A stretch of DNA of 64,000 nucleotides from Omnitrophica bacterium RIFCSPLOWO2_12_FULL_50_11 (GTDB lineage Bacteria > Omnitrophota > Omnitrophia > Omnitrophales > Danuiimicrobiaceae): NCBI GenBank assembly GCA_001804315.1, contig MHFT01000024.1:13610-77609 (forward strand), in the 5' to 3' direction. Positions 5,949 through 62,619 of the stretch are shown piece after piece; position 1 is the stretch's first letter; every line of letters begins with the position of its first letter. The notes below the pieces were generated by a model. That model did no database searches, was not told the DNA's origin, and worked only from the letters and a program-made list of their open reading frames with translations. The position numbers and the translations under genes were made by a program.

Positions 5949-5976
5949 TATAATTCAAAGACTTGGGTTATTTCCA

Positions 5977-6534
5977 ATGCCAAAATTAGAAGACCTGAAA
6001 GCCGAGCTGCTCCCGTTAATCAAAAAGCACGCGCACATCAAACTTCCGGAGCCGATCAAACTTTCTTCTGGGAAGATGAGCGACCAATATTTTGACGGGC
6101 GCAAGATCACGCTTCATCCTCAAGGAATCACACTCTTTGCGCGCGCGATTTTAGAAATGATCAAGCCGGCCGATTTTGACGCGGTGGGCGGGCCGAGTCT
6201 CGGCGCGGATCCGATTGCGACAGCAGTTTCTATTTTTGCCTTCCTCGACCGGAAAATCAAACTTCCGGCGTTTCTCATCCGCAGCGTACAAAAACCATAC
6301 GGCCTGCAAAAACAAGTCGAGGGCGCGGAACTAAAGCCGGGCATGACGGTGCTCATCGTTGAGGACGTGATGACAACAGGCAAATCGATTCGAAGCGCGA
6401 TTGAAGTGGTGGAACAAACAGGTGCCAAAGTCGGTCAGATTATTTGTTTGATTGACCGCAATGAAGGCGGCAGGGAAGCGCTTGCATCGTACCAGTTAAG
6501 CCCATTATTTACAAAAGATGAGATTGGAGCGTGA
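5977..6534 (+). CDS. pyrE: Orotate phosphoribosyltransferase
   Basis: PRTase motif VLIVEDVMTTGKSIRSAIEVVEQTGAKV; LSSGKMSDQYFDGRKI is OPRTase-like. The start is set at the ATG at 5977 (MPKLEDLK); the ORF-track start at 5908 overlaps mutY. Confidence 0.75.
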   Translation: MPKLEDLKAELLPLIKKHAHIKLPEPIKLSSGKMSDQYFDGRKITLHPQGITLFARAILEMIKPADFDAVGGPSLGADPIATAVSIFAFLDRKIKLPAFLIRSVQKPYGLQKQVEGAELKPGMTVLIVEDVMTTGKSIRSAIEVVEQTGAKVGQIICLIDRNEGGREALASYQLSPLFTKDEIGA

Positions 6535-14797: not shown

Positions 14798-17700
14798 GTG
14801 GAAGCCAGCTTAAAAGGCCAGGTTTTACCACATAACGCTCGGTGCTTTAGAAAGTCATTTTGGAGAGCGACGGCTTGCGTCGTCTTATTTTCTTTCGCGA
14901 CTACAACTGTCGCTTGGTCCGATCCTGGCTTTGGTTCACTCGACCCCTCTTCCTCTTATTCATCTTTTGCACAACACTCCCTCATTAACCCATTGAGAAA
15001 TATTGATCTCCCAGAGCGTCTTGGGAAGATCGACGAACTGTTCCTCCCAGAGAGAGTCTCTCCCGATTCTCCGTTCGTCGTCTACCTCCAAGACGCTCAC
15101 TCTAACCTCGGGGCTCAGCGCCGCATTGCGGAGGTGGCGCGCGAGCTGAGCGACAAGCTCCAAATCGAGGCCATCCTTGTTGAAGGCGGCACAGGCGAAG
15201 CCGATCTTGCGGATCTAAGATCGTTTCCGGATCAAGAAGTTAAAGAGCGCGCAACCGAATTTTGGCTCAAAGAGGCGATGCTCAGTGGAATTGAACGGGA
15301 AGCGATTGTCGGTCCAAAAGTCTACCGCTTCTTTGGCGTGGAGGACGAAGCACTTTACGAAGCAGGGGGGCGTAATTTTATTGAGGCACAAACCCGCTCG
15401 CAGCCCTTTTTGACTTCGCTCAAACCGCTGGTTCAAGAAAACGGCGAAAATAGGAGGCAATACCTTAACAAGAAGCTCTACGAGTTCGAAGAACGGGTCT
15501 CTCAGTTTGAGGAAAAGAACGAACTGATTGCCCTTGTCAGTTTTCTTGCGAGTAAAGCGCGTAACCTTCACATCAACCGCTGGAAATATCTCGAAATCGA
15601 AAAGTTAATCGACCTCATTCTGCTTGAAATGGAGGGGGGAAATAGTGAGCGCTTTTTCGAAATTCAAGAAATGCTCGATTCAAGAAAACTTTTCCGCGAG
15701 TTGGATTCCTTGAAGTCGGAAGTTAAGGAACGGTTGTTTCAAACGGACGCCGAGCGCGCCATTGACGAAGAGCACCAAGCGCTAAAAGCGTTGCAAGCGA
15801 TCGTATCACTTAAAGCAACCCCCGACGATTTTGATTATTTCCGCAAGCGCCGCGAATTGATCAAGAAGTATGCGCAGAGGGCAAAATTAGATTCCGAAGC
15901 GCTTGCGTCTGCCGAGGCCTTTTACCGATCTGCGCAGGAACGCGATCGGAAAATATTCGAAAATATCCAGGCGATTCTCGGCGAAAACGGAATCAAACGC
16001 GCGATTTTAGTGACCGGTGGCTTCCACGCTCCCGGAATCACAACCGAATTCCGTAAGCACAAAATTCCATACGTTCTGATCTCGCCCAAATTTTCTGACG
16101 AGGACAATTACTCGAACTATCTCGCACGCGTTTCCGGCAAACGTGCGAGTCTCGACGAATTCAAATCGAAGCATTCTAACCGTCATCTGGAAGGAAGCCT
16201 TAACGGAGTCGTCATCCTGAGGCAACGATCCAAAGAGGTGCCGAAGGATCCCGGTCGGGATTCGTCTTCCAAGGAGCCTGCCCTGAGGACGGGATCCTTC
16301 GGGCCTTCGGCCCTCAGGATGACGTCCGAAAGAGGGCTTCCCAATGACGGCGCATCTCATTCCCACGCCGCGGCGCACGCTGTTTTCAACCGCGCCGAAC
16401 TCCGCGTCATTCGTGAGTCATTTGAGTGGTTAAGAGAGGGTGTAAGTTCGGCCGAGAGTGCCACTTCTCCTCAGACAGGTTTACGACGCGCCGAAACGCG
16501 AACAGAAAAACCAAAACTTCGATTTACTTTGCGAAGTTTAATCTTTTGGGTGATTTGCTATGCCTTAATGTTAGCGTTTATCAAAGCGGTTTTTGGCGAG
16601 GTAGAGTGGGGAGAAGCGCTAGGAGTAATGTTAGGTGTAGGTGTATTGGCTAGGCTTTTTCACTTAGAGTATGTGGATCTATTCGACCTGACTGAAGGGG
16701 CTGGCATTGAAAAGTCAATTGACCGCAGATTCGGATTGAAAAGGGAATCACGCGATCTCGATCCGAAAAAGGACGGAGCGGAAAGCGGTCGTGACCCAGA
16801 GGAACCACCGTCCGAAAACGCGGATCCGGACCGCCGCGCAGAGATGCGTAGAGAAATTCAGGTGGAGGCTACAACGGCGGAAGATGGACGGAAAAGCGGC
16901 GACATCGCAGGCGCGGTCGATTCTCTTCCACCTTCCACCCTCCAGCTTCCAGTTTCTTATCGCCAAGCGGAAGTGCGGGCAGAAAGGAACGCCGAAGACG
17001 GAAACAAGGAGCGGAATCAGATTCCGATTTTGGATTCGAGACAGGCCACTCGTTTGGAAAGACCGGGAAGAGCGACGCGAACGGCACTTTCAACTCCCGA
17101 TAGACGGTTTTCGACAAAGAAGAGGCGATCTTCTACCGCAGAGAGACGTTCTTCTACTGCTGAGAAACGGTTGGGAAGGGGCCCAACGCCCTCCACAACA
17201 GCACGAAACTGGCCTCGAAGATCTTCGATCAATGTCCCTACTTCTGTGACGGTATATGAATCAGCCCTTTTTTTTGGCTTGGTAGGATTACCTTTGCTCA
17301 TTTCAAATCTCCTTGAGGATCATTTTGTGGGAACGGAAGGAATGGAAAGCACTGTATCAAGGCTGCCACAAGATGTCAAGGCGCCTTTTCAAAAATCGCA
17401 CCGCGCTGAAATCCGAAGTCGATCCGGCAGGGAGGACGGTTCGGAAATCAAAGCGACAAGCTCAGAGGAAGGACAAAACATCCGATCCGTCCGTTCGGAT
17501 AAAATGCAATGGCTTACAGTTAGCATTTTGCTTCCAGCCGTCACATTGGGCTTAGGGATCGGGGCAACTTTTCTGACCAAACGTTTCGAATCGCTTCCCG
17601 TTTCGATTTTATTCGTGAGGGGGATGCAATATATTTTGGGCACATTCGCAGACATAGGAATGAGTGCTGCTGCGAATTATGTTGGTCAGTGGCGTAAATT

Positions 17701-20700
17701 TAGGAGTAAGGCCAGCTGGGCGAGGGCAGTCCGTTTTGGCTTAATTATCCAAGTCGGTTTCTCGATCTGGTTTTTCGTCAAGCCGCGGCTTAGGATTCGA
17801 CTGGACCACTACGGGTCTGTCATGATGGTTGCTGCCGATACGGTGATTAGTTTGTTTACCCATCGTTTGTTGCTTCATTTGCTATATAGATCCGAGAGGT
17901 TATCTAAAGACGAGATTCGCGAAAAGATGAAAAACACATTTTGGCCTTCTTATGGGATGTTGGCGGGCGTGTGGGGCATTTTCAATTTAGGCATTTATGC
18001 TATTCCAAAAGATTGGGCCTTCGTTATTCCTATTATTTCATCGGTCGTGGCTTTTGTGAACAAAGTTATTTTGTCAGCTTATCTATATCGATCATCTTCC
18101 CGGACACTGATGATGAAGTTTGGGGGGACTTTCGGCTTGGTAGCTCCGATCATAAGCTTTGTTGCGATGGGTTCAGTCATCGGGCTTGACTTTTCATTTC
18201 GGCACGTGATTTTTGGGGGATTGAGTGGATGGTTAGTCGGAAGTGCGTTCGTTTACTTTGCAAAAAAATACTGGGGCTCAATCCAAACTGAAGGTGACGC
18301 GCTTCAAACGGGACCGGCATCTACAGGCAATGTCAATGATTTCCGGCCTGAGGTGCGGGGCAATGAGAAATTGAGTCGCACGCGGTGGGTCCGGCCATCT
18401 TGGATTGATTCGACCAGCTTGTTTTCACCGGCGGAAAGAAAACTCATTCGGGAACGCGGTCAATTGCTCAAGTTCGTGTACCCGCGCTTGAGCGAGAATG
18501 CGAAAAAAGTATTACTTTACCCTTCCTTCTTGCCCGTCTTTATGGGCGTCAAGCCGGCGTACCTGCGTATTACAGACCTTATTACTGGCCGCAAAGAACC
18601 GGATCCTATGATCCTTGCGAGAGAATTGAAAGATATTCCCAAGGCTTGGGATCAACTTGGGATAACGTTCAACGACATCAGAGCGATGTTAGTATTCGAT
18701 GTTTTTGATCAACTCAAGGCGCACATGAAACTTTTAAAAGACTTTGGTGTCCTGCCGCGCTATCCAAACGTCGACCTGATGAGCGAAGAGTGGAAAAGCT
18801 ATCAACCGAGCAAGTGGCAGGCGTTATCGGAAGAATTGGAATTGTTCATTGACGACTTAGACGACAATGTTGAGGTTAGTCAGAGTGCTGGGCATGTTCT
18901 TAACGGCATTGTCTTAGGTTATCCGGTGGCGGAAGTTCAGGCTCTAGGCGAATACATAACGGGCTTTTCGGTGAGTGTAACGCGGCTGTCGACAGAGTTT
19001 GAAGGCATTGAGCTCTTCGTTCGACTAGGAGAAAAGGGAGAAATTGCAGACGAAACGCATCGCTATCTCGCGCGGATGACCGATGCGCTTTATTATGCCT
19101 ATTCACTCCTACAGGAAAATGAGGACTTCGCGAGCATAGCTCAGGAACTCAACCTTCCCCCTAGAGTTCTTTCAGCCGAAGCTCCTGAGTCGATTGTCAG
19201 CCGTGGCGAACTTAGGCAAAGCGATTTTTTCAGGTCTGAGGTGCGGGGAAAAGAAAACGCTCAAGATTTACAATTGTATATTCGGCGTGCTCGCCATCCA
19301 GAGGTTCAAAGCGGAGAAACGAGTGATCAGGCGCCGGATTCTGCCGCCGTCAGCCTGTTGCCAATACCGCGAATTTCTTCTTTGAGCTCAGACCGCGTTT
19401 CTCCAAGTTCAGTCCGAGTATCACGGAGGTCCTTGGAGAGTTTTGACACGGCGTCTTCAAGGCGAGATGCTTTACCGTTGAGGACGTTGATTCGGAGTTC
19501 GATCGTATCTAGCCTTCGGCTGTTGCCGTGGACAGTTACCTCGAGCCGTTCCATCCTCGTATCGAGACCTGACTGGCCCTCAGCGAGGGTATCAAATTTC
19601 TTGTCCAATGCTTCCAGAAGTGTGCCCACTTCCGTGACTGAATATGAATCAGCCATTTTCTTTGGCTTGGTAGGATTACCTTTGCTCATTTCAAATCTCC
19701 TTGAGGATCAATTTGTGGGAACGGCAGGAATGGAAAGCAAGGTATCAGAGCGGCCACAAGATGTCAAGGTGCCTTTTGATGCCGGGCGCAAGACCGGAAT
19801 TGCGAACCCCAAAATCTTCTCCTCTCCCCTGTCGGGGGAGAGGATTTCCGCCAAAGGACGCGGCGGATCCGCCGCGCTGTATGGCGGAAAGGTGAGGGGG
19901 ACGAGTGAAAATAACTTGAACATCCACCCTCACCCAACCCTCTCCCTCCAATGGAGAGAGAGGGGAAAAGACTACAGCTACGGTCTTGTGACTTTTGATG
20001 CCGCCCGGCGTGCGGAGACCCGCGATCGAGTGCGGAATCCGGAGTTCAGGGTGCGGAGTGGACTTAAGTTCGGGAGTTCGCCCGTTCCGCACTCCGCACT
20101 CCGCATTTCCAACTCAAATCGGCGGGCCGAAGCGCGGGCAGAGAGCGATGGAGATCAACTTGTCAAACGATTCACAAGGTTAAGGGGGATGAATCTTTTG
20201 AGAGCTTTACCTGAATTAAACGGCGCGGTTCGACGGAAAGATTTGCCGGCTCGCACTTTGGAGAAGCTGAAAGAACAGCGCCGGATTAGGTATGTTCCTT
20301 ATGTACGCGGAGCGCTCAAAAGGCTCGCACGGAATTTAAGGAGCGAATTTCCAAAGGGGCGTGAGCTCATGAAAGCAGTTGCGGATGCATCAGGTGATCC
20401 TGAACTCTATGACCGTTCGGATGCCCTTCCGTTGCGAATTCTCCAGCAAATCGATCAACGAAAAGCGTGGGAGAGGGTGGCCTCTAACGACAACGTCGCA
20501 GAGCTTCTCCTCCGCGCGAAAGAAGCATTTGATCGGTATATGAGCACTGATGACGCATGGCTTTCAGAACATCTGCCTGAACTCAAGGATAAAAGGGCCG
20601 CCTACTTTTCGGCTGAATTTGCGGTTCCGCCGCTCCCGATATACACCGGCGGAATGGGGGTGCTGGCGGCTGATATCGTGGCGAGCGCGAGTGATCTGAG

Positions 20701-26700: not shown

Positions 26701-29700
26701 AGAATGGAAAGGTAAGAGTATTTTCGAAATTGGATTCGAAGCCAGTCTAATTCCTCGGGAGTTTAATTTGTTAGTGGATGCCGCGGTTAAGGGATTTAGC
26801 AATCTCAACGAGGCCGAACGAAATCAAGTGAAAAAGGTTCTTCGGAAGATTTTCGAAAAATTGGGCTTGCTCGAAACGGAAAAGCAAGAGGAGCGGCGCC
26901 GATTCCTGAGTCAAATCAGCGCGCTCATGATAAAGCTCAAAGCGCGGGGAAAGTTAGACAAATTAAAGTCAACGTTTCAAAAGAAATACTTGGACGAGAC
27001 ATCGTTCAAATTGGAGCGTGAGGTCAAAGTGTCAGGGCTTCAAACCGGTGATCAGGTACAGGAAGCAGCGGCGGAAATATCCGATGAAGAGCCTCTGGGC
27101 GCTTTGAGAAAATTGCTTGCTAAAAAACCCCGTGGGATTGAGGAAGCATATGCCTTGTCTATTTCACGAGGCGCATCTTTAGAAGAGGTTCGGAGGACAC
27201 TCAAAGAAGCTGGCTATGAGATGACGCAATGGAGACGCGACGGGTTGCTCGGCCTCTTTCGATTTAAACGAAATGTGTGGTTGAAAGTGCAAGAGCCCCG
27301 CCGGGCCGAGGTGCGGCACGAGCTGGTGCAGAGTGTGGAATTCGGAGTGCGAAGCAGACGCGAACGAGACGACTCGATCATTCCGTATTCCGCACTCTCC
27401 ATTCCGCACTCGGAAACACGGGCTGAGATGCGGGGACAATTGGAAGAAGATTGGAAAATAGCACGTTCTGCTGTGTGGTTTTTTTTGAGGAGAGGGGTTT
27501 ATTTTAAGCAGGACATCGAAGATGCTTTTCAGGATATCCATCTTGCGTTTGCGGAGGAGAGGCAGAAGGGAAAACCCTTATCAGAACTGGAGCTGAGAAA
27601 GATTGCTCTGGCCGCCCTTTCAAAACATGTGAGGGATTATCATAAGTACAAGCGTGTGGTTAGAGGGTTTCAAGCTGCATATAGATCGCTCGTCACAAAG
27701 CGCCGCGGCCCACGTCCTATGCTTGATGATGTCGATCTCTTGATACCTGAGGTAGGGGAAGAGACATTTGGGGACAGGCTTAGATCTCATTTCAGAAGGC
27801 GAGGGTGGTCCCAGCGACGAGGAGCGCGTGAATTAGGATTTTCGTACGGCTCCATTAAACCGTGGATATCAGGTAAGATTCCAAGCCCATTCTTTGTGAA
27901 ACGGCTTGCGACCGCACTGGACACGACGGTAAGTGAGTTGATGATAGGAATACCTAGGGAAGAGTTGCTCGCCATCAGGATTGAAGATGAAGAAAGTGGC
28001 GAATACAGAAAAATCTTGGGGTTGAAGGTCAAAGTTTTGAGATATGAAAAAGGATGGACAAAAAGCAGGCTTGCTCGCGAGGTGGGTATCAAGGATAACA
28101 CCATTATCAGACTGGAGGCAGGCGAACCTACGTTTCCCTATCGGTACATTGGAAAACTTGCCGAAACGCTGGGTACGACGATAGGCGATCTTATTGCAGG
28201 AATGCCTGACGAAAAAATAATGGCTATTCGTGTTTTTGACGAGAAAAGCGAGGAGCATCGTGAACTCTTTGGGCTCAAATTAAGAGTCCTCAGATATAGG
28301 CGAAGATTATCTCAGACCGGTTTCCAGGGCCAGAGTAGCACCTCCGCATGGGAAAGTGGGAAATGGTTCCCCTATCCCAGAAGCATGAAAATCATTGCGC
28401 GCAACTTAAAAACAACTGTGAGCGAACTTTTAGCCGGCATACCTGAAGAGAAGTTAATGAGCATGCGGGTCCGAGACGAGAAAAGCCGGGAAGCAAAACA
28501 AATTCTTGGATTAAAGATCAAAATTTTTAGATACAAACGGGGTTGGACCTTAACCGAACTTGCTCAAGAAATGCACGTGCATGTTGATACGGCTTCAGAT
28601 TGGGAAGCCGGACTGCACTTCCCTGCGATACGGCATTTCAAACAGCTAGCAGAACGACTGAATTCTACGGTGAGCCATCTTCTGGTGGGTTTGCCCGCAG
28701 AGGAGATAAAAACAAGATTAAAAAATGGCAATGACCCGGACTATGCCGACCTATTCAATCTCATGATCCGGGTTGTAAGATACGAGAACGGTTGGTCATC
28801 GGGCAAGCTCGGCGCTGAAGTTGGGATTCCTCGGGTAACCATCGATGGATGGTCATGGAGTCGAGCAGTTCCCGCCCCTAACAATTGGAAAAAATTGACT
28901 ACTGGAAAAGGGCACGTTCTTTTCGGTGACTACCTTCCTCCGTCACGGCCGAAACCCACAGAGCTTGATGAGACAGAACGTAAAGTTCATGAACTGTATC
29001 AACAACTAGGTCGATACAGTTCTGTCGCCAGAGCAATGGGATGGCAAGGAGCAGCAGGCGGCGTGAGGGCCCGGCACATATACCTGCGGTCTCTTCGGAA
29101 ATTGGGGGCTCAGAGCCGCGCTGAGGTGCGGAACGAACTGGTGCGGAATGCGGAATTCGGAGTGCGGAGTGGACGTCAACTCGAAGACTTGATCATTCCG
29201 CATTCCGCCCTCCCCATTCTGTACTCGGAACCACGGCCTGAACTGCGGATGGGGCTGGAAGAGATCGCGATCTATGAGGAAGACGTGGATCTCGAAGCGT
29301 ATCAGCGCGTGATGCGTTCTGCCGAGGTCCGTTTCTTAACGCGTGAGGAGGAAAAGATCCTTTTTCGTGCCCTTCATGCTCGAAATCTAAAAGGAGAAGA
29401 GCGCAGGACTCTCTTTGACTTTCTAGTCTTGAAATATCTTCCTAGGATTAAACGCGTGATCCGTAAACTCGTACGCGGTGAGGGGCGAGACAAGGACAAT
29501 ATGTATCAGGACGGTTCTTTGGGGTTAATGGAAGCAGTCTGTCGTTTTGATTACCGTCTCGGGACGAGGTTTGGTACATTTGCCGACTGGTGGATATGGG
29601 GCAAAATTCTAATCGGTTTGAATGACTTAGCCACTGGAAAGTTACCGTCTCAGGAGCGGGAACTCGTCCCCGCAATCTTGAGCTCTCAACAGGAATTAAC

Positions 29701-32700
29701 ACAGCTTTTCAAGCGTGAACCCACCATGGAGGAATTGGCCAAAGCGCTAGGGGAAGAGGAAAAAACGGTGATCCGCATCCTTTCCTTCTTCTCACGGGCA
29801 AAGTCCTTAGATGCCCCAGCAGGGAACGGTGAATTAAACCGCTATCAATTCCGCTCGGATCCAAAAGCGGAAACTCCGGAGGCGATCGCGGTTCGTGAGG
29901 AAGAACACCGCGAGATAGTCCCAGAGATTTCAAGAAGGCTAGCCCTTCTTTCCTCTTACCAGCAGCTCGTCATCAAACTGCGGTTTGGAATTGGCACGCA
30001 AAAAGAGGGCGGTTATACACTCGACGAGATTGGAACAATGCTGGGGGTCACAAGAGAGAACATCCGTCAGATCGAAGATCGTGCAATCAAAAATATGCGC
30101 AGCAACACTATTTCAGACGCCAAGACTCGTCCCGTATCCACTGAACATGGTGATGTTTACCTTGTGGAAGTCGTCGGCATAAAGCCGGATCATCCTGTTT
30201 TTGAGGACATGCGGCTCAAGCCACTTATCGAGATAAAAGAGCTTTACGAAAGGGGCTTTTTTGCCAATTTCATTCCGGCACAAAACTTGACGATGGGCAG
30301 GGTCAGAAATGTTAAGCCTCGTGTCGGCTACCGGAGACGCGTAGCGGCAACGGCCCGAGCAGCCGCTCACCGTGCTGAGGCGCGCAGTGGAAGCGTGAGG
30401 GAGTATGCGACGTGGGATCACTTCCATAGCTTGATTCATGTCCTCGCGATAGATAGCGAGGAAAAGAATCGGCTGGAAGCGTATAAGCGATTGAGAGAGC
30501 TAGCATTGTTTCAACCGTTCCACTTTGGCCTTGCTTTGGTGCGGCATGTCGGAGGTGAAATAGCTTCTTATGCTAAATCCATTTTGCTGGAGGTTGCGTG
30601 GGAAAACCCAGAGATCATGACTGGACCCATTGTGAGCTCACTTGAAGATCCGAGTCGGAATCCGCATGCTGAAGAACTTCTCGGCCAGTGGATTGACCTC
30701 ATCATCAAAAAGAAAGATCGAAACAAACTCAGTATTGTTGCCCGGCCTCTGATCGGCATCTTAGCTCTTGAGATAGCCCGCCCTGCTGCCGAAAGATTGA
30801 TTCAAAAAATTGCTCTTTTTGATCTCGGTGTAATTGTGAATCGATTCATGGGGGCACTCAAAGATCCCGCGAGGCGGGCGATCGTCGGGCACCTCCTTGT
30901 AGTCATTAGCCGTTATTCTGCTGGCGCAGCAAAGTTCGTCACCGAAACTGTCATTGAAAATCTTTATGACAATGAAATCGCCGAATACCTTATAGAAGTA
31001 CTTCTTGAGATTTCCAAGGATGCGGGCGAAAAGACGGTAAAACATATTTTGTGGTTATTAATGGATGTTTTGCATTTTGAGGATTACCTGAAGCGGGTTC
31101 GTTTTGTTCCGTTCAAGGAACGGCTAAGAGAAAATAAGGGAGATTTCCGTCGAAACGCAGCCGCGGTTTTATCGAGAATGCTGGTGACATATCCGGTCGA
31201 AACAGTGCACATTGTAGTCGGCCATGCTTTGAATCATGACGTCCGGCAGTACGCCGACGAAATCCTCGCTGAAATCGAGGATAAACAACCCCAGATTCTT
31301 ACTGATTCCTATGTGGCAGCTCAGGGCCGAATGAGTCCAAATGAATTTGTGGAAAGCGAGTTGATTCGTCTCGCTGCATCACATCGAGGGCCTATCCTCA
31401 ACTCGCTCATCAAATCGCTTAAGAGACAATCAAAAGCTCCGGCCTTAGTTTCGCTTCTGATAAAGATGGCGCGGTCTAACTCTGAGCTTTCAGGTTTCAT
31501 TCAAGAGCGCCTCAAGTCTGCGATGTCTGAGGTGCCGACGCATCGGAACCTCGATCGCTTCGGTCAACAAATTCTTGCCCAAATCCAGTCCCGCAATGAA
31601 GTGCGATTGGGATTAAATTTGGCCAAGGAGAGAAAAGTACTGCTCTCGGGAAATGCCAGCCGTGCGGAGGTTATTCAAAATGATGAAAACGGGCACAGCC
31701 CGATATTGAGGAATGACGATCGGACGGCTGACGCCAGGCTTGATGTAAACAAGGTGGTCGCCAGTTTGACGCACACGCCGAAAACCGGCCAATTCGAAGA
31801 CTCGACAAAGGTTTTGATACGGAATCGGAGTGATGCGGCTCATGGAGCAGGAGACGATTTAGAAAGTGACTTCGCTATGCTCGGTAGCAATAAGAGGAGG
31901 AGAAGTCCATTCGGTTCCAGCCGGATCTCGGGCAATGAAACCTTCTTCTTGAAGAATGTCCTTGAGCGTTCCCATTCTGGAACTTTCCTCAAGGAACAGC
32001 CGAACCGCTTCCATAAGCCTGCGCCGCGCATCGTCCACCGTATCTCCGCAGCTGGCAACGGACAATTCTGGGCAGACACTGACAAACGTCGGCCCCTCTC
32101 TAAAAATCAAGGAAGTGAATTCAATCTTTCTCATGGCATTCAAACTATAACACAGAACCGGGATGCCGTAAAGCAGCCCTCTTACCGCTCTGCAGTGCGT
32201 GAAAAATTCAGGGGAGAGGCGAGAGAGGAGAGGGAAGAGAAAAAGCGCTTACCTCTTACCGCTTCTCTCTCGCCTCTCACCACTCACCTCTCCCCTGATT
32301 CTTCCCGCCCCGCGGCACGCAAACGAGTGCGAAGCGGACATGAACTCGAAGACTCGATCATTCCGCATTCCAGACTTCCCAATCCGCACTCGGAAACACC
32401 GGCTGACGCGCGGGATCTCGTAGTTGCGCATGACGAATTGCCAGTGACGAAAGGTAGAAGACCTTGGCAGTACGAACGCGCGGATCTAAGGCACCGAGCG
32501 CGCTCTAGAGGTGTGAGTGCTTTTCGCGGCGGCGGCCCTGCCAATCGAGAAAGACAATTCCGAGAATTATTACAAGCAGGATCACAGCAAGAAACACAAC
32601 ATTCGCTGTTGCTCCATCCATTTTTGTTTCCTCTCGTCAGGATTGATCCAGAGAATGAAGGCAAAAGCAACAAGATAAATTATAACCCCGGCCACCAGAA

Positions 32701-35700
32701 GAAACAAGACAGGTCCGACTTGTTGGGCGCATCCGACTTCATACAGTTGTCATCGCGAGGCCAGCATCCCAAGAATGGGCTGAAGCAATACGATGCCTCC
32801 GTCATTACGAGGAAGCGTAGGGGCAATGACGAAGTAATCTCGGATGCGAGATTACTTCGTCATCCCTTGGGGTTGCTTCCTCGCAATGACGGTCAGGATG
32901 CAATTGCTTCGTCAACGCCTGGTCCGCTGCCTCGCGATAACGTTGGCATTGCTGCATCGAGCGGGATACGCGCCGCGGTGCAGAGTGGACAGGAACTGGA
33001 AGACTTGATCATTCCGCATTCCGCACTCCCCATTCCGCACTTGGAAACACGGCCTGAGGTGCGGAGCGGGGACAAATCACGAGGGGATGCGAGCGCTCCT
33101 CCTGACCGTGTCAAACAATGGGAAGAGAATATCGGTGCCGTGAAAAGGATGTTGAGCAAGTTTTTTCAGGAAGGCAATGACCTAAATTATGCCTTGCTTT
33201 TGTTTGGAAACATCCTCGTGAACGATCCCGTTAGAATCGATTACATGGAGAAATTGATGAATGCTTTGAAGAAACAAAAGGGGCCTCGTAGAGACAAAAA
33301 CGCAAGACACGGCGTAGAGCTTACGCCTGACGATCTTAGAGATTTGCTCGATTGGGTAATCGGAGACGTCGCCTATTTAAGCTCTCCGCCTAATAGGAAG
33401 GACGACGGACCTGTTATGTGGATGTGGGTTCCATACAGAGACCTACCCGAAGAACTCATAACCGAAATTGTGAAATATCGAACGCCTAAAAAGAATTTTG
33501 ATGATGCGGCTGACGCATGGAGAGCATATCAGGCGCAGGGTGATAAGAAGCTAATCGGATTTAAGTCATTCTATGATAAGCACTTTAAAAAAAGAGGGGC
33601 GATGGCGTCTGGCGATCAGGCTTTTGATTCGTATTCGTTTCATTTTTTACCTACGAGAAAGCATGATGATTTGAAACTAGGGATTGACACTGACTGGGCC
33701 GGCAGAGGATTGGGCAGAGGATTGGTTGCGTTCAGGGACGTACCTCGAGGTCGAAAACTTGTTGTAAATCGGCTCCGGCAATCTGAACAGGTTTATGGAA
33801 TGTCTCAACATTTGTTTTACATTGAATTAGAGCACGTCAAAAATCGGCTTATTGTTCACACCCACCAACACGGCGGTAGTCGGACGAGTCAATTGAGGAC
33901 TTCCGATCGTGAGTTGTATGATTACTTGAAACATGTACCGGATAAAGCCTTCGCTTTGTTAATAGACCGACTGGATGAGGTACTTGCAGCTTTAGGATGG
34001 TCGGCAGCCGATCAAATCCAGGATTTTGAGATTGTCTCAGCCAGCAAGGTCGCTTATGAATGGTCCACGGTCTCGGCCTCAACGGTTATGACAGCTTATA
34101 TGGATTTTCCACAGCGCCTTGGATTTCATATGGTAGAACGTAAGCCCAATGAGATCCGGAATGCGCCAGGCGACCAAGCCATGTGGAGAGAAAGCGTGTG
34201 GTACTGGAGCCGGCCGCTTGCGGATATGAAGAAACCTCCGAAAGTTCAGATCGAGACGCCGTCTTCTTTCCGTCCGGAAGTGAGAATCCTGGAGACGCGG
34301 GCTGAGGTGCGGGAAACAAAAGTAAGAAGCACGAAGCTGGAAGCAGGAGCGCAAAAGTCTCTCGCTTCAGGCCTCGCGTTTCACGCCGGCGGCAAAGCCG
34401 CCTCCCGCTCTGAAATGCGGATAAATCCGAGGAGCACTGAGGAATTGCGCGAACAGTTGATGACTCTTGTAAGGGAGATCGTCATTCTGCTTGATCTTCT
34501 CACGGTAGATCCCCGTCGGGAGAACCGGAAGGAACTTGAAACCGAGATTACGGAGCTGAGAAGGCAGCTCAGTGAACAAAAAGAGTTTGTGAACGAAGAT
34601 CAACATCAAATCTTTGACAAGCTTGTGGGAGAAGTTAAATCGCTCATTGATTTAGTATCGGCTTCCAAGCTGCCTCTTTCTACTCAATTGATACGAGAAC
34701 ATACTCAGCGTATTTACAGTAACATCCAAGAGCTGGAATTTAAGCCTACGGGGGAACAAAAAGATGCAATAAGTGCGGAAACAGAACGCTTCGAGCTCGC
34801 GAAGTTGATTAGAGCTAAGGATGTCGAGGGTATTGCTGACATGCTTTCGAGAAGCGACGAGGTGCCAATAAAGGTAGATGCGATCAGGGCACTGGGTCTA
34901 TTGAAGGCCAGTCAATATGCAGATTTGATCGTTCCATACTTAACCTTTTTCACACCACCCTTCGGCGAGGGTGTGCGGCTGACTGCAATTACTGCATTAA
35001 GAAATTTAAATGCAAAACAATATCTAACTGAGATTGCGAAGAAATTCACAGATCCCACACTAAGCGTTCGCAGTAGGGCAGCCGGAGTGATTGGGGCATT
35101 CGGGGATCCAACATACATCCCCCAACTGAAGGAACTATTGAATGACAAATCCGCCGCGGTGCGGCTTGCAGCGGCAAAAGCTTTGCAGAAATTCGGAGTG
35201 GACATTCCTGAAGAATACCGCTCCGAAGCGCGGAGCAATGATGATGTCTTTATGAGGATCGCAGCTTCTTTGCCAGAGGAGTGGCGGGAAAAAATTCAAG
35301 CAGTGCAGACAAAACCAGCTAACAGGGATGTTTTCCCCTCGTGGATACAAGCGCTGAATGAAGCGGAAGCGACGCGCCTACACTCCATTCTAACGGATCG
35401 CGTGCCAGTAGATGTAATTGAGTCCTTTTTCCTGAACAGCCCGCACTTTCTTGCAAGCGATCCCGATCAGCGTCATCAAGTGGCAGTTTCGATTGCAGAG
35501 ACGCTAGAGGATGTACGTCGGCTTTTAAGATCTTGGATTGAAGAGCTGGATCGCGACCCGCATGCGCGACGTCCTGCAGCGATCCCTGCGCGCCAGATGA
35601 CCACCCCTGCTGAGACAAGAGGTGTCCGGCCGCAAGAAGAACGAGAAGAGTGGGTATCAGAGGAGGAAGCTGCCAGACGCGCGCGCTTCATTGAGTGGGC

Positions 35701-37675
35701 TCGAGATGAAATGGGCATAGAGGCGACCAATTATGACGAGCTTGTCCGTGCGATGACGGAACGTTTCAGCTATGTTGTTCACGTGAATGCAGCTAGCATT
35801 GCGCGTACGCTTCCTCCACGCACGAGTTGGAACGACTTTGAGGATTTGGAGATCGCGGGCGTTTTGGGTCTGATCGATGCACTTGGCAAATACGATCCTG
35901 CTCGAGGCGTTCAGTTCGACTCGTATGCAAAGCATAGAGTAAGGGGAGCTATCTTGGATGAATTGAGAAAAATAGATCCTGAAAAGAGAGAAGTGAGGGA
36001 GCTTGCAAACGCTCTTCAAGAGGAGGGACGAACTCGTTCCACATCAGAAGAAGTGGTGGGGTCCTATGATGTCACACGCGCTGCCGTGTTAAGGGCTCTG
36101 CAAGTTGCTCGCGGCGGAGACATATCACTAGATAAAAAATTGTTTGAGACGGATACTGGAAAGAGCGTCACGATAAAGGATAGGCTTCTAAGCAACAGTC
36201 CGACTGGAGATTTTGTAGCAGAGCAGCGCGACTTAATCGAATATGTGATGCGGCCGTTGAGCCCCCGGGAGAAAGCGATATTGATTTTATATTACCACGG
36301 GAATTTGCCGATGAAGCAGGTCGGAGAAATTTTGGGTGTTAGCGAATCACGAATCTCTCAGATATTGAAAGATCTTCCTAAGCGGATAAAAGAACGAATG
36401 CATGAGTTTTTTGAGAGAGGAACTCTTATGCGGCTAGACACATTCGCGGCAAGAAGTCGATATGCGAGGCTAGCTACCGGCCTTCGTCGCAGGGACGTTA
36501 CGCAACAGCTCTACAGGAACGTCGAGAAAGGCTTGATGAGGCCGAGAGAGGAAACGTTCGTAAAATTAGCAGATGCTTATGGCGTTAGCATACAGTGGCT
36601 GAAGACCGGCCACAACATTCCTCCCTTTTTGAGTCCGGAGCATTTGGAAGTTGGTGCCAAAGCAATTGTGGCGATTGAAGAAGAAAGAATAAGAATGGCG
36701 CTTCCGATCGGCATCTTGGCGCACGAGGCAAAGGTATCTCGTCGCGCCTACCTATTTTACGTAGCGGGTAAAGTGATTCCGACCTCTGACGTCCTAAGCC
36801 GCCTTAGGAGTGCTCTTGAGACAGCAAAACCTGGCGGCAAGTATCCGACTCGAGAATCTGTCTTGGAGGGACTAGCAGCACGTGAGGCAAAGAAGTGGCC
36901 AAGTCATGTTAGGGCGCTCCAGATTGGTGAACATAAAGATGCGGCACTTCTGTATGCGGCCAGAAAATTTGGAATTGAACTACCTCGGCCGCCGAGAACT
37001 GGCGAACATCCGAAGGCAGAAAAAAGCCGCTCCAAAGACTCCAAGAAACCTCGTTCTGAAACGAGGGTCATTCCCACTTTCTCCAGCTTGCCGGAAGCTG
37101 AGCCACAATCGGCAGTCGAAACCGAAAATCGTTTGATCGTGACGCTTGGGGAACTTCGAATAAGCGGCGAGCTGCGGGCGAAATTGAAAGAAGCAATTCA
37201 GGTGAATCAAGCCAACCCAACGTTTATCCTGGTGATTGTCGATACGGAATTTAGACACGAGCTTCTAGCTGAGCGAGAGCTTTTTGGGCTTTTTGGGAGG
37301 GATTTCTTTATTCGTTATCCCGTGGAGCTTCACGGACGGGAGAGTCTTAAAATTTCGACCGAAATGTCGCCGTGGGTGGTACTCAATCGCGCGATTGGTG
37401 CGGCGCGTAAAGAAGTCGGTCTTAATGGTTCTTTCTTTTCACCCCAAGTGATTGCGTCGGGGAGCCACGATGTTCTCTCTCGTCTCGGCCGGCGTGATAC
37501 GCCACTCCTTGTAGCCGAACCGCTCCTATTCGATTTGGCGCGCCGCCTATTCGACCTTAAAGATGCTCAGGCGTGGTTCCGCCAGGCAGCTGGCCCCGAG
37601 GGAATTCTCCATCCGTGGGCGGAACACCTGCGTACGTTAATGCTGACTCGACAAGCGCAGGTCGCCGCTGCATAA
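14798..37675 (+). CDS. Giant mosaic ORF (7625 aa, 22.9 kb, stop-free). Order of parts: signal peptide, ChaN/TIKI-like domain, TM segments, GT35 alpha-glucan phosphorylase, 5x HTH_XRE, sigma-70 module, ARM/HEAT-like helical regions, FliA-like sigma module, HTH_XRE
   Basis: A single frame is open for 22,878 nt with many recognisable domains in that frame (listed as separate features); GTG start with GGAGG and a consensus promoter. It also contains in-frame palindromic repeats and nested antisense genes (see findings). Whether it is translated as one polypeptide is unknown. Confidence 0.75.
   Translation: [7625 protein letters not shown]
14990..16140 (+). other. N-terminal ChaN/TIKI/TraB-like domain of the giant ORF (paralogous to the 752..3859 protein)
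   Basis: [38 protein letters not shown] ... [31 protein letters not shown], preceded by a signal-like [15 protein letters not shown]. Confidence 0.4.
16211..16324. repeat. Palindromic family-A repeat (GTCATCCTGAGG ... GAAGGATC ... CCTCAGGATGAC) inserted in-frame in the giant ORF
   Basis: Same family as intergenic copies at 7975-8110, 43025-43100, 47908-48017, 50560-50935, 62118-62215 and 62922-63012. Confidence 0.7.
17017..17301 (-). CDS. Small coiled-coil protein gene nested antisense in the giant ORF (copy 1 of a duplicated module)
   Basis: On the minus strand, TTGACA-17-TACAGT then AAGGAGATTTGAA-ATG; MSKGNPTKPKKRADSYTVTEVGTLIEDL... followed by heptad repeats (LSAVEERLSAVEDRLFFVENRLSGVES). 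Confidence 0.5.
   Translation of the reverse strand: MSKGNPTKPKKRADSYTVTEVGTLIEDLRGQFRAVVEGVGPLPNRFSAVEERLSAVEDRLFFVENRLSGVESAVRVALPGLSKRVACLESKIGI
17500..18280 (+). other. Polytopic transmembrane region of the giant ORF (about 8 predicted helices); an additional helix pair lies at 16500-16690
   Basis: Hydrophobic runs [111 protein letters not shown]. Confidence 0.5.
19327..19689 (-). CDS. Paralogous small coiled-coil protein gene nested antisense in the giant ORF (copy 2)
   Basis: Same conserved promoter/RBS/N-terminus (MSKGNPTKPKKMADSYSVTEVGTLLEAL...) on a duplicated approximately 168-nt segment (19625..19792 versus 17225..17392); diverged coiled-coil body of 120 aa. Confidence 0.5.
   Translation of the reverse strand: MSKGNPTKPKKMADSYSVTEVGTLLEALDKKFDTLAEGQSGLDTRMERLEVTVHGNSRRLDTIELRINVLNGKASRLEDAVSKLSKDLRDTRTELGETRSELKEEIRGIGNRLTAAESGA
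19815..19970. repeat. Family-D repeat (TTTCCGCCAAA..GGCGGATCCGCC..TATGGCGGAA with flanking G/C-rich palindromes) in-frame in the giant ORF
   Basis: A homologous intergenic copy lies at 39150-39370. Confidence 0.6.
20190..22560 (+). other. glgP: Complete alpha-glucan (glycogen/maltodextrin) phosphorylase module, GT35, embedded in the giant ORF
   Basis: [51 protein letters not shown] (GT35 N-terminal hallmark); [37 protein letters not shown]; PLP-lysine motif [14 protein letters not shown] with the Lys retained. An internal AAGGGGG-ATG sits at about 20195 at the module start. Confidence 0.8.
27775..28890 (+). other. Tandem array of five HTH_XRE (Cro/C1-type) DNA-binding domains inside the giant ORF
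   Basis: Five roughly 80-aa repeats of the pattern (L/M)[20 protein letters not shown]...LGLKxKxxRYxxGWTxxxLAxExGxxxxTxxxWExG...KLAExLxTTVSxLLxG. Confidence 0.65.
29112..29252. repeat. Family-C composite palindromic element (CTGAGGTGCGG direct repeats flanking a tgcggaatgcggaattcgg / ccgcattccgc hairpin) in-frame in the giant ORF
   Basis: Near-identical copies at 20000-20140, 27296-27440, 32336-32425 (half) and 32975-33070, each translated as ...[44 protein letters not shown].... Confidence 0.7.
29330..30110 (+). other. Complete sigma-70 family sigma factor module (regions 1.2, 2, 3 and 4) embedded in the giant ORF
   Basis: [17 protein letters not shown]..., region 2 [33 protein letters not shown] (compare [33 protein letters not shown]), region 3 [21 protein letters not shown], region 4 [30 protein letters not shown]. 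Confidence 0.75.
31613..31843 (-). CDS. hicA: HicA-family mRNA interferase toxin nested antisense inside the giant ORF
   Basis: YQNLCRVFELAGFRRVRQTGDHLVYIKPGVSRPIVIPQYRAVPVFIILNNLRTAGISREQYFSLL is a YcfA/HicA dsRBD-like toxin with the catalytic His in the G(D/S)H motif; 76 aa. Confidence 0.7.
   Translation of the reverse strand: MSRITPIPYQNLCRVFELAGFRRVRQTGDHLVYIKPGVSRPIVIPQYRAVPVFIILNNLRTAGISREQYFSLLGQI
31859..32143 (-). CDS. hicB: HicB-family antitoxin (UPF0150 fold) nested antisense inside the giant ORF
   Basis: FTSLIFREGPTFVSVCPELSVASCGDTVDDARRRLMEAVRLFLEE matches the HicB N-terminal domain signature (partial RNase-H-like fold, GxTxEEA motif region). Lies 15 nt upstream of hicA on the same strand. 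Confidence 0.65.
   Translation of the reverse strand: MNAMRKIEFTSLIFREGPTFVSVCPELSVASCGDTVDDARRRLMEAVRLFLEESSRMGTLKDILQEEGFIARDPAGTEWTSPPLIATEHSEVTF
32747..32892. repeat. Palindromic family-B repeat (GTCAT(T/C)GCGAGG ... GAAGCAATCTCG/CGAGATTGCTTC ... CCTCGCAATGAC) in-frame in the giant ORF
   Basis: Same family at 6545-6640, 61378-61570 and 62625-62772. Translated copies give ...ARQQSKRCRSNLEVVRLLRR... / ...[13 protein letters not shown]... peptides. Confidence 0.7.
34840..35210 (+). other. HEAT/PBS-lyase-type repeats in the giant ORF
   Basis: Repeated approximately 30-aa units [23 protein letters not shown] / [75 protein letters not shown]. Confidence 0.55.
35700..36410 (+). other. Complete FliA/sigma-28-like sigma factor module embedded in the giant ORF, followed at about 36440-36620 by another HTH_XRE domain
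   Basis: [45 protein letters not shown] (compare FliA LLQAGGIGLLNAVERYDALQGTAFTTYAVQRIRGAMLDELRSRD) and region 4 [48 protein letters not shown]; then [44 protein letters not shown]. Confidence 0.75.
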
Positions 37676-38260: not shown

Positions 38261-39097
38261 ATGACGGAAGTACTGACTAAGATTAGATTTGGGCACAGTC
38301 CGGATCCGGATGATGCGTTCATGTTTTATGCGATTGCGCGCGGGAAAATCGACCTTGCGGGATTTGAAATTGAGCACGTGGTCGAGGACATTGAATCGCT
38401 GAATCGTCGTGCGTTACGCGGGGAGCTCGAAGCAACTGCAGTTTCGGTTCATGCGTACGCGCACATTGCGGATGAGTACGCGATCATGCGCGCCGGTGCG
38501 AGTGTGGGCGAAAAATACGGGCCGGTTGTGGTTGCGAAAATGGGCGGGACGGAGAAGATTTGTGGAAAAACGATTGCGATTCCTGGAAGATTGACCACGG
38601 CGTATTTGGCTCTGAGGCTATTTGAGAAAAATTTTAACGAAGTTGTTGTCCCGTTTGACAAAATCATCGATTTCGTAGATGCAGGAAAAGCAGACGCCGG
38701 ACTTCTCATTCATGAAGGACAAGTCACGTACCAAAATCACGGGCTTAAAAAAATCATGGATCTGGGTGCGTGGTGGTGGGAGGAAACAAAGTTACCACTG
38801 CCGCTTGGCGTAGATGTGATTCGGAAGAATTTAGGCAGTGAGCCCATGAAGGCATTCGCGCGTGTCTTTAAAGAAAGCATTGAATACGCGCTCGCACACC
38901 GCGAGGCAGCGCTCGATTACGCGCTTCCGTACGGCCGGGGTCTGACGCGCGAAGCGGGCGATCGGTTTGTCGGCATGTACGTGAATGACTACACGCGTGA
39001 CCTTGGAACAGCGGGCGAGGAAGGCATCTGTCAATTGTTGGCACGCGGTTACGACGCGAGAATTTTGCCGAGGGCGATTACACCAGAATTTGTTTAG
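38261..39097 (+). CDS. mqnD: MqnA/MqnD-family protein (futalosine-pathway menaquinone biosynthesis; 1,4-dihydroxy-6-naphthoate synthase-like)
   Basis: IRFGHSPDPDDAFMFYAIARGKIDL matches the MqnD N-terminal signature (LGxSPCPNDTFxFYAL); 278 aa; periplasmic-binding-protein-like fold family. Confidence 0.65.
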   Translation: MTEVLTKIRFGHSPDPDDAFMFYAIARGKIDLAGFEIEHVVEDIESLNRRALRGELEATAVSVHAYAHIADEYAIMRAGASVGEKYGPVVVAKMGGTEKICGKTIAIPGRLTTAYLALRLFEKNFNEVVVPFDKIIDFVDAGKADAGLLIHEGQVTYQNHGLKKIMDLGAWWWEETKLPLPLGVDVIRKNLGSEPMKAFARVFKESIEYALAHREAALDYALPYGRGLTREAGDRFVGMYVNDYTRDLGTAGEEGICQLLARGYDARILPRAITPEFV

Positions 39098-53863: not shown

Positions 53864-54090
53864 TTTGGACCTCCGTTTGTGGCAAGAAGCATTGTACTCA
53901 ACTTGACCGCTTTCGACCTAAAGCGTCATCCCCTCTCCCTTTATTAAAGGGAGAGGGAAAGGGTGAGGGTTTGAAAACAAGGGAACGATCGAACCCCCTC
54001 ATCCTTTCCTTCTCCCCCTTAAAAAAGAAAGGGGGAGAAGGGATCGTGCGGTAGTTCAAAAAACGGTCGGGTTGTGCATTGTACTACATT

Positions 54091-55497: not shown

Positions 55498-55797
55498 ATC
55501 AGCTACCTAAGGGGGGACAGGTCGTTGACCTGTCCCCCTGCTCAACGTCATGCGTTACAGCCAATTTTCGGAGCGCTCGGAAAATTGTGTTATTTCGATA
55601 CACACTCAAAACATCGTAAGAGTAAGTCTTATCACAACTTAAGTTGTGTACGTGTTTAGCGTCCTAACCCGCATTTCTCATCGCCAATGAGAAATGCCCT
55701 CGCAATGACGGCTGCATGAAGTGGTATGTACCCGACAGGTCGTTGACCTGTCCCCCTCCACATCAGCACGACAGCCTTAAAATGAAATCGGGTCCTC

Positions 55798-56208: not shown

Positions 56209-56224
56209 AGCCAGCCCTAGTCGT

Positions 56225-57118: not shown

Positions 57119-57195
57119 GAAGCATCCTCCTTACTTACCCCACACCTTTTTCCTCCCCCCGCTCTGCGGGGGGAGGTTAGGAGGGGGGGGGTTCC

Positions 57196-60651: not shown

Positions 60652-60690
60652 GAACTTTTTTCTCCTTTCCGCTTCGCCGTCACGCCTGCT

Positions 60691-61347: not shown

Positions 61348-61374
61348 GTTTTCTCCTTTCTTTGTCTTTGCGTC

Positions 61375-62478: not shown

Positions 62479-62619
62479 CCCCTTTCAAGGGGCGAAAAAC
62501 AAAGAGCCGAACCAACCCCGAATTACTGCGGTTAGTTCGGCTCTGTTGTACGCGACTTAGAAGCGATTCACGGTCCGACCTAACACCGCACCTAACATTC
62601 GGCAACCTGCCTACCTTAT

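Follow-up and report, generated by a model that had tools for sequence, protein, structure and literature searches.

A divergent sigma factor embedded in a giant, polyprotein-like open reading frame of an Omnitrophota bacterium

The giant open reading frame

The window analysed here, a stretch of 64,000 nucleotides (nt) from contig MHFT01000024.1 of Omnitrophica bacterium RIFCSPLOWO2_12_FULL_50_11, whose genome was recovered from Rifle groundwater, contains a giant open reading frame (ORF) of 7,625 amino acids (aa), inside which a sigma-70-type factor was found. The giant ORF starts with a GTG codon preceded by the Shine-Dalgarno (SD) sequence GGAGG, and its chromosomal neighbours are ordinary monocistronic genes. 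From the N-terminus, it encodes a unit with a hydrophobic leader, membrane segments, an alpha-glucan phosphorylase (DUF3417 and Phosphorylase) and several units without a Pfam match, followed by an XRE-type unit, the sigma unit, HEAT-like units, a second sigma of the FliA/WhiG type and a tail unit. The ORF and the sigma unit are located as follows:

14798-37675, plus strand: giant ORF, about 20 gene-sized units in one frame (ORF listing, coding potential, stop counts)
29249-30370, plus strand: sigma unit (aa 4818-5191), consisting of a 37-aa leader, sigma2-sigma3-sigma4 and a family-specific C-terminal tail (junction sites, Pfam, NCBIfam, AlphaFold2 model, relatives)

No in-frame stop is present in the 7,625 codons according to the ORF listing, against 237-408 stops in each of the five other frames, and the probability of a whole frame of this length being free of stops is about 1e-171. 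When coding potential was scored by codon-usage log-likelihood, with the window's ordinary genes as the training set, frame 0 came out best almost throughout. Coding signal was lacking at about aa 480-560, 660-870, 1440-1800 and 5620-6085. These stretches are stop-free as well, with 9-29 stops in the other five frames over the same DNA, and for the two longest of them the chance of this state is about 1e-7 and 2e-9. Since the linkers are stop-free despite the lack of coding signal, the continuity of the frame itself must be under selection; the giant ORF is kept open by selection.

The same 7,625-aa gene was called in a second assembly, from another ENA analysis (L001), and in a third, from another sample (L011), the frame runs on without a stop to the contig end, over at least 5,964 aa. 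Over the sigma module both are identical to the window. As three assemblies from at least two samples agree, the sigma module is real and in frame, and mis-assembly is unlikely. The embedding of the sigma module in the giant ORF, which had been noted in a preliminary description of this DNA, is thereby confirmed: in these assemblies there is neither a stop nor a break of frame. Reassignment of stop codons was considered and is irrelevant, as the giant frame has no standard stops and the adjacent genes terminate normally.

L001 differs from the window by 12 single-nucleotide polymorphisms (SNPs; 7 synonymous, 5 not), which are clustered and confined to aa 7490-7616. The contigs of nine further assemblies (L002-L010) end less than 1 kb upstream of the gene at 38261-39097, at or just past the 3' end of the giant ORF. 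The contig breaks and the SNP cluster suggest strain heterogeneity in the tail unit.

The sigma unit

The sigma unit extends from Met4818 to His5191. It is larger than the module of the preliminary description (29330-30110, corresponding to aa 4845-5104) and includes the leader of 37 aa and a family-specific tail of 85 aa. The following parts were distinguished:

29333-29383, plus strand: region-1.2-like segment FLTREEEKILFRALHAR, which holds the hallmark LFRALHA (alignments)
29423-29611, plus strand: Sigma70 region 2 (aa 4876-4938) with an altered region 2.4, WWIWGKI (PF04542, 40 bits; gathering threshold, GA, 24)
29663-29881, plus strand: Sigma70 region 3 (aa 4956-5028; PF04539, 38 bits; GA 25.3)
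29939-30100, plus strand: Sigma70 region 4 (aa 5048-5101) with a conserved region 4.2 helix-turn-helix (HTH; PF04545, 55 bits; GA 24.1)
30116-30253, plus strand: C-terminal tail, conserved in the embedded-sigma family (..EHGDVYLVEVVGIKPDHPVF..; consensus, AlphaFold2 model)

Regions 1.2, 2.1-2.4, 3 and 4.2 had been described as present and collinear with RpoD/RpoS-type proteins. This holds for regions 2, 3 and 4, which score above their Pfam thresholds. Region 1.2 (Sigma70_r1_2, PF00140) gave no Pfam match in the sigma unit even at E<=1; the region-1.2-like segment (FLTREEEKILFRALHARNL) is divergent, is seen by alignment only and is preceded by just 37 aa. Region 1.1 (PF03979) was not found in Pfam scans of the unit either. 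In the AlphaFold2 model (mean predicted local distance difference test score, pLDDT, 77) sigma2, sigma3 and sigma4 are all confident, and the C-terminal tail, which is not present in the ordinary sigma factors aligned, is modelled at pLDDT 80-93. The best PDB matches of this model in Foldseek were sigmaS (5ipl_F) and sigmaA chains in RNA polymerase (RNAP) initiation complexes, with E about 1e-11 and about 28% identity over 277-305 residues.

Residues were compared with those of Escherichia coli RpoD and RpoS, whose numbering is used here for E. coli, and of the closest homologues found. Region 2.4 reads WWIWGKILIG in place of WWIRQAITRS (R436W, Q437G, T440L and R441I, together with Y430F), and the melting tryptophans W433 and W434 are retained. 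The core-binding segment of region 2.2 shows conservative changes (Q406 retained, E407D, N409S). In the region 4.2 HTH the residues that read the -35 element, R584, E585, R588 and Q589, are all retained. The two statements of the preliminary description on the altered region 2.4 and on the well-conserved region 4.2 were thus correct.

In NCBIfam the unit passes the superfamily model TIGR02937 only (72.4 bits, cutoff 42.9). The equivalog models of RpoD were missed (RpoD_Cterm, 122.6 bits against 354; PRK05658, 111.9 against 555; PRK09210, 104.9 against 572), as was that of RpoS (TIGR02394, 102.1 bits against 378.7), and the SigE and SigK models were not among the best 25 of the 51 NCBIfam matches. 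No rpoD was found elsewhere in the 64-kb window. Because the superfamily model alone is passed and regions 1.2 and 1.1 were not detected, the assignment as a housekeeping-type factor had to be dropped: judged from its sequence, the unit is a complete, divergent sigma factor of an alternative type.

A word-indexed homologue search with the sigma unit returned standalone sigma factors only, of ~290 aa and about 40% identity (at most 42%), with N-termini that align with Met4818. When genome and metagenome contigs were searched with the unit, pattern matches and no relatives were obtained.

A sigma family inside long open reading frames

Relatives were sought by an exhaustive HMMER search of 1.84 billion representatives, with a query of 1,200 aa that ran from the XRE unit through the sigma unit into the unit after it. 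The top matches were proteins of 1,056-4,033 aa with an internal sigma. The sigma is internal in P0164 (3,581 aa), P0168 (4,033 aa), P0169 (2,384 aa, with two sigma units), P0175 (3,569 aa) and P0302 (2,600 aa), as well as in P0222, P0294, P0195 and others; in P0173 (2,133 aa), P0177 and P0208 it is N-terminal, or nearly so, in the protein as called. Several relatives are Omnitrophota proteins of 2,133-3,581 aa that carry the NCBI name 'sigma-70 family RNA polymerase sigma factor'. As the census was partial, the members named here are a lower bound.

The family has the hallmark LFxALHAxNL (LFRALHAxNL in this unit), a conserved GIGT...RIRQIE in region 4 and a tail with the consensus Dh.DVYLvE..GI.P....F, which ordinary sigma factors do not have. 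By these shared features, there is a distinct sigma family that lives inside long ORFs.

The closest relative of the sigma unit, P0170 (HLD87625.1), was deposited as 'Candidatus Nanoarchaeia archaeon'. It is encoded on a contig of 2 kb, and the archaeal label is for that reason probably a binning error.

A pentapeptide at the junctions between units

Between the units of the giant ORF a junction PENTAPEPTIDE recurs, with the pattern R-[A/S/P]-E-[V/M/L/A/I/T]-R. The strict pattern is found at 24 sites; shuffling of the whole protein gives an expectation of 0.45, and shuffling inside windows of 40 aa one of 0.48. Permuted, K-for-R and D-for-E versions of the pattern occur 0-2 times. Across the six frames of the window there are 30 occurrences, 24 of which are in the frame of the giant ORF. 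The residues that flank the motif are not conserved. The junctions at the sigma unit, and the first junction of the ORF, are:

16391-16405, plus strand: first junction, RAELR, directly after the N-terminal unit or head module (orthologous first sites in relatives)
29115-29249, plus strand: 134-nt linker cassette, read in frame as RAEVR..hairpin..RPELR and present in 5 copies in all (from direct-repeat families D1 and D2)
29234-29248, plus strand: upstream junction RPELR, followed at once by Met4818 of the sigma unit (motif scan)
30371-30385, plus strand: downstream junction RAEAR, which closes the sigma unit, 337 aa after the hallmark

The motif recurs at the same boundaries in relatives. In proteins that bear it, a site lies 37-56 aa before LFxALHA in all seven sigma units (P0168, two in P0169, P0302, P0195, P0170 and the giant ORF), and in four of five cases the next site follows 333-377 aa after the hallmark (337 here; 333, 371 and 377 in the two units of P0169 and in P0302). 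The sigma unit of P0170, at 54% identity, starts with RSEVR-Met, as the unit here does with RPELR-Met. P0163 and P0165 have a site before the XRE unit at the same position as RAEMR here. After the head module, an R[SA]E[LV]R site is present in L013 (RSELR, aa 512) and L014 (RSELR, aa 488), and also in L012/P0153 and in P0168 (RSELR). The sites in the giant ORF use many different Arg, Ser/Ala/Pro and Glu codons, and the synonymous codons of the RSELR sites in L013 and L014 are fully scrambled, which shows that selection acts on the junction peptide. Comparison of proteins that are 33-57% identical thus indicates that the motif is conserved as a peptide at orthologous unit boundaries.

Two trivial origins of the motif were considered. 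A compositional artefact of linkers rich in R and E was ruled out by the local-window shuffles and the permuted-pattern controls. Origin from a DNA repeat is true in part, as 5-6 sites lie in the 134-nt cassette, and was rejected as the general cause in view of the varied and scrambled codons.

The cassette at 29115-29249 has a predicted RNA fold of -64.8 kcal/mol (z = -3.5). Its five copies (20049-20138, 27300-27434, 29115-29249, 32325-32414 and 32931-33065) have the same orientation and frame and are bracketed by RxExR. In the window they are found inside the giant ORF only; two of them flank the XRE unit and two a stretch without coding signal. The cassette could be a joint for recombination or module shuffling, or an element for RNA processing or stability.

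At about 28930-28950 (aa about 4714-4720, ..LPPSRPKPTELDETER..) there is a degenerate site, KPTELD, where P0163 has ..LPSTPP-RSELR-EAEPQ..; the next intact site follows ~55 aa later. From this comparison, KPTELD may be an example of the loss of a site by which two units became fused.

The motif strings RSELR, RAEVR, RSEVR and RPEVR were found in the searchable literature solely as an unrelated alginate-lyase motif, and no literature description of the junction motif or of the embedded sigma family was found.

Resemblance of the units to separate proteins

Segments resembling transmembrane (TM) helices, as assigned by simple hydropathy estimates, all lie before aa 3900 of the giant ORF. Three of them separate the phosphorylase from the sigma unit, which would be awkward if both were cytoplasmic on one uncut chain; this lends slight support to separate units. 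Some units carry topogenic signals of their own, for example at aa 3547, where RSEAR is directly followed by a TM helix. Moreover, the nearest word-indexed matches of the sigma unit (~290 aa) and the homologues of the head module (~500 aa) exist as standalone proteins.

14798-16390, plus strand: N-terminal unit or head module (aa 1-531), with a hydrophobic leader and a Tiki/Ere/ChaN-fold domain with conserved 2His/2Glu

Homologues of the head module are present at some 244 genome loci, nearly all from Omnitrophota. Among 80 loci examined, about half have the module at the head of a long ORF, and many of these ORFs are still open, after more than 3,800 aa, where the 10-kb flank ends; in the remainder the module stands alone, as a protein of ~500 aa that has a signal peptide. 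When the ORFs of these 80 loci were searched with a profile of the sigma unit (hmmsearch), no sigma was found within the first 3,900 aa or fewer. A Pfam scan of the whole giant ORF found no C39, S8, S1, CPD, dockerin or SecA domain. The Tiki/Ere-fold head would be the sole hydrolase-like candidate in cis, and is put forward as a candidate hydrolase only.

Cysteine makes up 0.05% of the giant ORF (~4 Cys in total), compared with 0.85% in the other ORFs of the window. In all motif-bearing relatives (P0168, P0169, P0302, P0195, P0170 and L013) it is 0-0.15%, against 0.2-0.8% in motif-free long ORFs.

The ORF at 752-3859 (plus strand, 1,035 aa) looks like a short giant ORF. The N-terminal half of this ORF is a paralogue of the head module (E = 4e-16). 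Cys is absent from the ORF, RAEAR occurs in it once, at an internal position, and no Pfam or NCBIfam match was obtained for it. It ends in ...LYRAEVQIQAAA and the giant ORF in ...TRQAQVAAA, each followed by the stop. The C-termini were compared of the giant ORF (37640-37675), 752-3859, P0163, P0168, P0169, P0208, P0222, P0302, P0294, P0177 and P0175, and of complete long ORFs in L014, L017, L042, L054, L071 and others. Of 19 complete long ORFs with the Tiki module at their head, 17 end in [K/R/x]-[A/S]-[A/L/V]-COOH. Ala is the last residue of all 10 sigma-bearing long proteins that were checked; in standalone versions of the head (~500 aa) the tail is acidic. By BLAST no homology in the form of a C-terminal 'cap' module was seen between the giant ORF and its relatives, which have the last 2-3 residues alone in common. 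The shared residues look like a conserved signal, for instance a degron, a PDZ-protease tag or an export tag.

Proposed processing and alternative explanations

A frame kept open by selection, units that resemble standalone proteins and have their own anchors, and a conserved pentapeptide at the boundaries are most simply accounted for by a polyprotein. We hold with moderate confidence that the giant ORF is polyprotein-like and that the sigma unit is released by cleavage at the RxExR junctions to act as an alternative sigma factor. About 20 units would be translated as one chain from the single SD and GTG start, and an Arg-directed endopeptidase would cut at the R-[A/S/P]-E-[V/L/I/M/A/T]-R junctions, the motif being a putative cleavage site. 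The cuts would set free a sigma factor of ~43 kDa (aa 4818-5191) with its 37-aa leader, sigma2-sigma3-sigma4 and the conserved 85-aa tail. This factor would bind the RNAP core and is predicted to read a -35 element of the canonical type, as region 4.2 is intact, and a non-canonical -10 element, as region 2.4 is changed with the melting tryptophans kept. With candidate processing sites on both sides, proteolytic release is the most economical way for an embedded sigma to work.

More tentatively, we propose that an Omnitrophota lineage makes sets of ordinary proteins (enzymes, membrane proteins and regulators, including two sigma factors) as true cellular polyproteins with a dedicated Arg-specific protease. 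A specialised sigma family would then have evolved for delivery in this manner, and the Tiki-fold head, the C-terminal -[A/S]-[A/L/V] and the near-absence of cysteine may be parts of one maturation machinery.

Several observations weigh against release by cleavage. The motif is absent from the sigma-bearing proteins P0164, P0175, P0173, P0177, P0208, P0222 and P0294 and from most of the 80 head-module loci, and is restricted to a sub-lineage; in the motif-free sigma-bearing ORFs either another signal is used, or embedding needs no cleavage. Region 2.4, including even the WW pair, varies within the family, so that some members may not work as promoter-melting sigma factors. The Tiki-fold head also stands at the start of motif-free long ORFs and resembles exported proteins, its standalone homologues having signal peptides; it might therefore be on the wrong side of the membrane for cutting the junctions. 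A stable hairpin lies just 5' of the sigma ATG, which leaves room for explanations at the RNA level. Finally, all relatives of usable divergence are sequences from metagenome-assembled genomes (MAGs) or metagenomes.

The preliminary description had seen in the giant protein a possible membrane-anchored, built-in anti-sigma that holds the sigma until signal-dependent proteolysis. The sigma is indeed embedded, TM-like segments are present upstream in the same chain, and candidate cleavage sites (RPELR and RAEAR) flank the unit. There are also precedents: pro-sigmaE and pro-sigmaK of Bacillus subtilis, each with a 20-30-aa pro-peptide and encoded by a dedicated gene, are activated by proteolysis (by SpoIIGA and SpoIVFB, respectively), and extracytoplasmic function (ECF) sigma factors can carry fused regulatory extensions. 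Membrane anchoring, however, holds for an uncut chain only, and the last TM-like segment lies more than 900 aa upstream of the sigma. Release by proteolysis is plausible, but at a motif that is not specific to the sigma: it is common to all units, enzymes and membrane proteins included. As it separates essentially all units, and also Tiki-like and XRE units elsewhere, it points to generic processing in the style of a polyprotein. In addition, the sigma is not a housekeeping one, and Pfam and NCBIfam scans revealed no anti-sigma domain, no zinc-finger anti-sigma, no features of a substrate of regulated intramembrane proteolysis and no regulatory input. The dedicated regulated-release arrangement was not borne out, and a tethered pro-sigma is in our opinion unlikely. 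We give equally little credence to separate expression of the units, by processing of the transcript at the linker hairpins or by internal initiation at the ATG at 29249, with the frame kept open, for example, against Rho-dependent polarity. This ATG lies exactly at the start of the unit and directly after the cassette with the -64.8 kcal/mol hairpin, the Met of P0170 likewise lies right after the site, and about half of the ordinary genes here have no SD, showing that SD-independent initiation exists in this genome. The sigma ATG, on the other hand, has no SD (duplex -1.7 kcal/mol) and its start would be buried beside a stable stem, most units have no Met near the site, and the hairpin cassette is found at just 5 of about 24 junctions. 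Furthermore, RNA processing does not explain a strict pentapeptide with scrambled codons, and RNA cuts upstream would produce non-stop messages. Given the lack of an SD at the sigma ATG and of a consistent Met after the sites, internal initiation is unsupported as a general mechanism; for the sigma unit specifically it is possible.

Another explanation is that the giant protein stays uncut and serves as a scaffold associated with the membrane, in which the sigma modules are tethered domains that bind DNA or RNAP and RxExR is a structural or interaction motif. This agrees with the published view of such giants as single membrane-associated proteins (10.64898/2026.06.07.730766), with the motif-free state of several sigma-bearing long ORFs and with the variable region 2.4 of the family. 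It is nevertheless rather improbable: the units look complete and independent and have N-terminal anchors of their own, the number of TM segments between cytoplasmic-type units is inconsistent in parity for a single chain, the long stretches without coding signal are unlikely to be structural, and the strictness of the motif, with no K or D as substitutes, fits recognition by an enzyme better than a spacer. An artefact of assembly, or a recent non-functional fusion in decay, would be suspected from the MAG origin of the sequence and from the many short contigs of other assemblies that break near the 3' end of the giant ORF. We consider it highly improbable, as three assemblies are identical over the module, the probability of the stop-free frame is about 1e-171, and other species show the architecture, the motif and the sigma family again.

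Comparison with known systems

Pro-sigmaE and pro-sigmaK resemble the sigma unit in that a sigma factor resides in a larger precursor and presumably needs proteolysis to be free. Here, in contrast, there are thousands of residues on both sides, the candidate site is common to non-sigma units, and no context of the SpoIIGA or SpoIVFB type was found. With the group 2 and 3 sigma-70 factors (RpoS-like and SigB/F/G-like) the unit shares the fold and the arrangement sigma2-sigma3-sigma4 of about 290 aa. It differs from them in that every subfamily and equivalog cutoff was missed, in its own LFRALHAxNL, variable region 2.4 and extra tail, and in being an internal unit.

The polyproteins of viruses such as picornaviruses, flaviviruses and potyviruses give rise to many mature proteins from one ORF by way of a short conserved junction peptide. 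The single ORF and the junction peptide are shared with the locus described here, which differs in being on a cellular chromosome and in that the cleavage is putative. The MARTX toxins are likewise giant bacterial polypeptides; they process themselves, and their independent units are released by cuts in the linkers between them. They too have a Tiki-superfamily fold within the chain, the MARTX effector RRSP being a Tiki-family endopeptidase (PMC6254334); for the giant ORF, cleavage into the units is again presumed. MARTX toxins are secreted and are processed by an internal cysteine protease domain, whereas neither that domain nor RTX repeats were reported in the Pfam scan here; the cargo here consists of housekeeping-like cytoplasmic and membrane proteins, sigma factors among them, the junction motif is another one, and the chain is almost free of Cys. 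Pro-sigmaE/K, MARTX and the viral polyproteins may be regarded as functional analogues; on their defining features the giant ORF would not be a member of any of them.

Giant multi-domain ORFs of Omnitrophota have been described by West-Roberts et al. 2023 (10.1101/2023.11.21.568195) and Nielsen & Lui 2026 (10.64898/2026.06.07.730766). Cleavage of these giants into smaller products was speculated upon, and is treated as open or left unaddressed there (10.1101/2023.11.21.568195; 10.64898/2026.06.07.730766). Neither preprint mentions the junction motif, and a term search of the two gave no mention of sigma factors. The giant ORF has in common with the published giants, among them the 'multi-enzyme' class of Nielsen & Lui 2026, the phylum, the great length, the tiling by unrelated Pfam domains and the TM helices. 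With 7,625 aa it is shorter than the threshold of 10,000 aa for the catalogue of Nielsen & Lui 2026, and it is set apart by a defined junction pentapeptide that is found across species and by a dedicated embedded sigma family.

Whether giant Omnitrophota genes encode single proteins or chains that are cut is an explicit open question, for which this locus is a concrete and testable candidate. The locus also shows that sigma factors, whose function depends on their being free in the cytoplasm, can be part of the cargo of giant ORFs. If the proposed cleavage is true, bacteria would have a cellular polyprotein strategy for stoichiometric co-expression as an alternative to the operon, and the sigma units would constitute a new family that is unusual in its mode of production and probably also in its promoter specificity. 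A simple rule would also become available by which giant ORFs could be divided into units when they are annotated or their structures predicted. Should cleavage be refuted, an uncut sigma tethered to the membrane would itself be of interest.

Other features of the giant ORF and its surroundings

Two further units of the giant ORF contain sigma-like or HTH domains:

27434-29116, plus strand: XRE unit (aa 4213-4773), with a weakly sigma-region-2-like N-terminus and 4-5 XRE-type HTH repeats (Pfam HTH_3, four matches; NCBIfam)
35234-37051, plus strand: unit with the second sigma (aa 6813-7418), lying between RSEAR and RSETR (NCBIfam)

The likeness of the N-terminus of the XRE unit to sigma region 2 is weak (TIGR02937, E = 4e-4). 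In the second unit the FliA/WhiG-like sigma occupies about aa 6988-7201 (35759-36400) and is followed by XRE-like HTH domains. It passes TIGR02937 (85 bits) and is below the cutoff of TIGR02479 (143 bits, cutoff 189.6).

The stretch at aa 5620-6085 (about 31655-33050) comprises ~466 codons without coding signal or domain matches and is stop-free (P about 2e-9). It contains a long hairpin rich in purines and pyrimidines at 32203-32303 and, at 32746-32892, an element resembling repetitive extragenic palindromic (REP) sequences (..LLRHPLGLLPRNDG..), of which a copy with 81% identity is located outside the ORF, at 61386-61532. An Rfam search of 14-38.5 kb at permissive thresholds gave only sub-threshold matches to generic hairpins (microRNA models) at 32.2 kb, which stem from this long hairpin, and no known RNA element that would explain the linkers. 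Nearer the N-terminus, a direct repeat of 167 nt with 89% identity (17223-17389 and 19611-19777) represents a duplicated linker with a TM-like segment ..VTVYESALFFGLVGLPLLISNLLED.. at about aa 809-865 and 1605-1661.

Just downstream of the giant ORF, at about 39.4-41.0 kb, a PilZ-like gene and a gene for an NYN-domain (RNase-like) protein were found. A Tad/Flp-type pilus cluster is present on the minus strand at about 54000-64000 of the window, ~16 kb downstream of the giant ORF, and includes a CpaF-like ATPase at 58149-59504.

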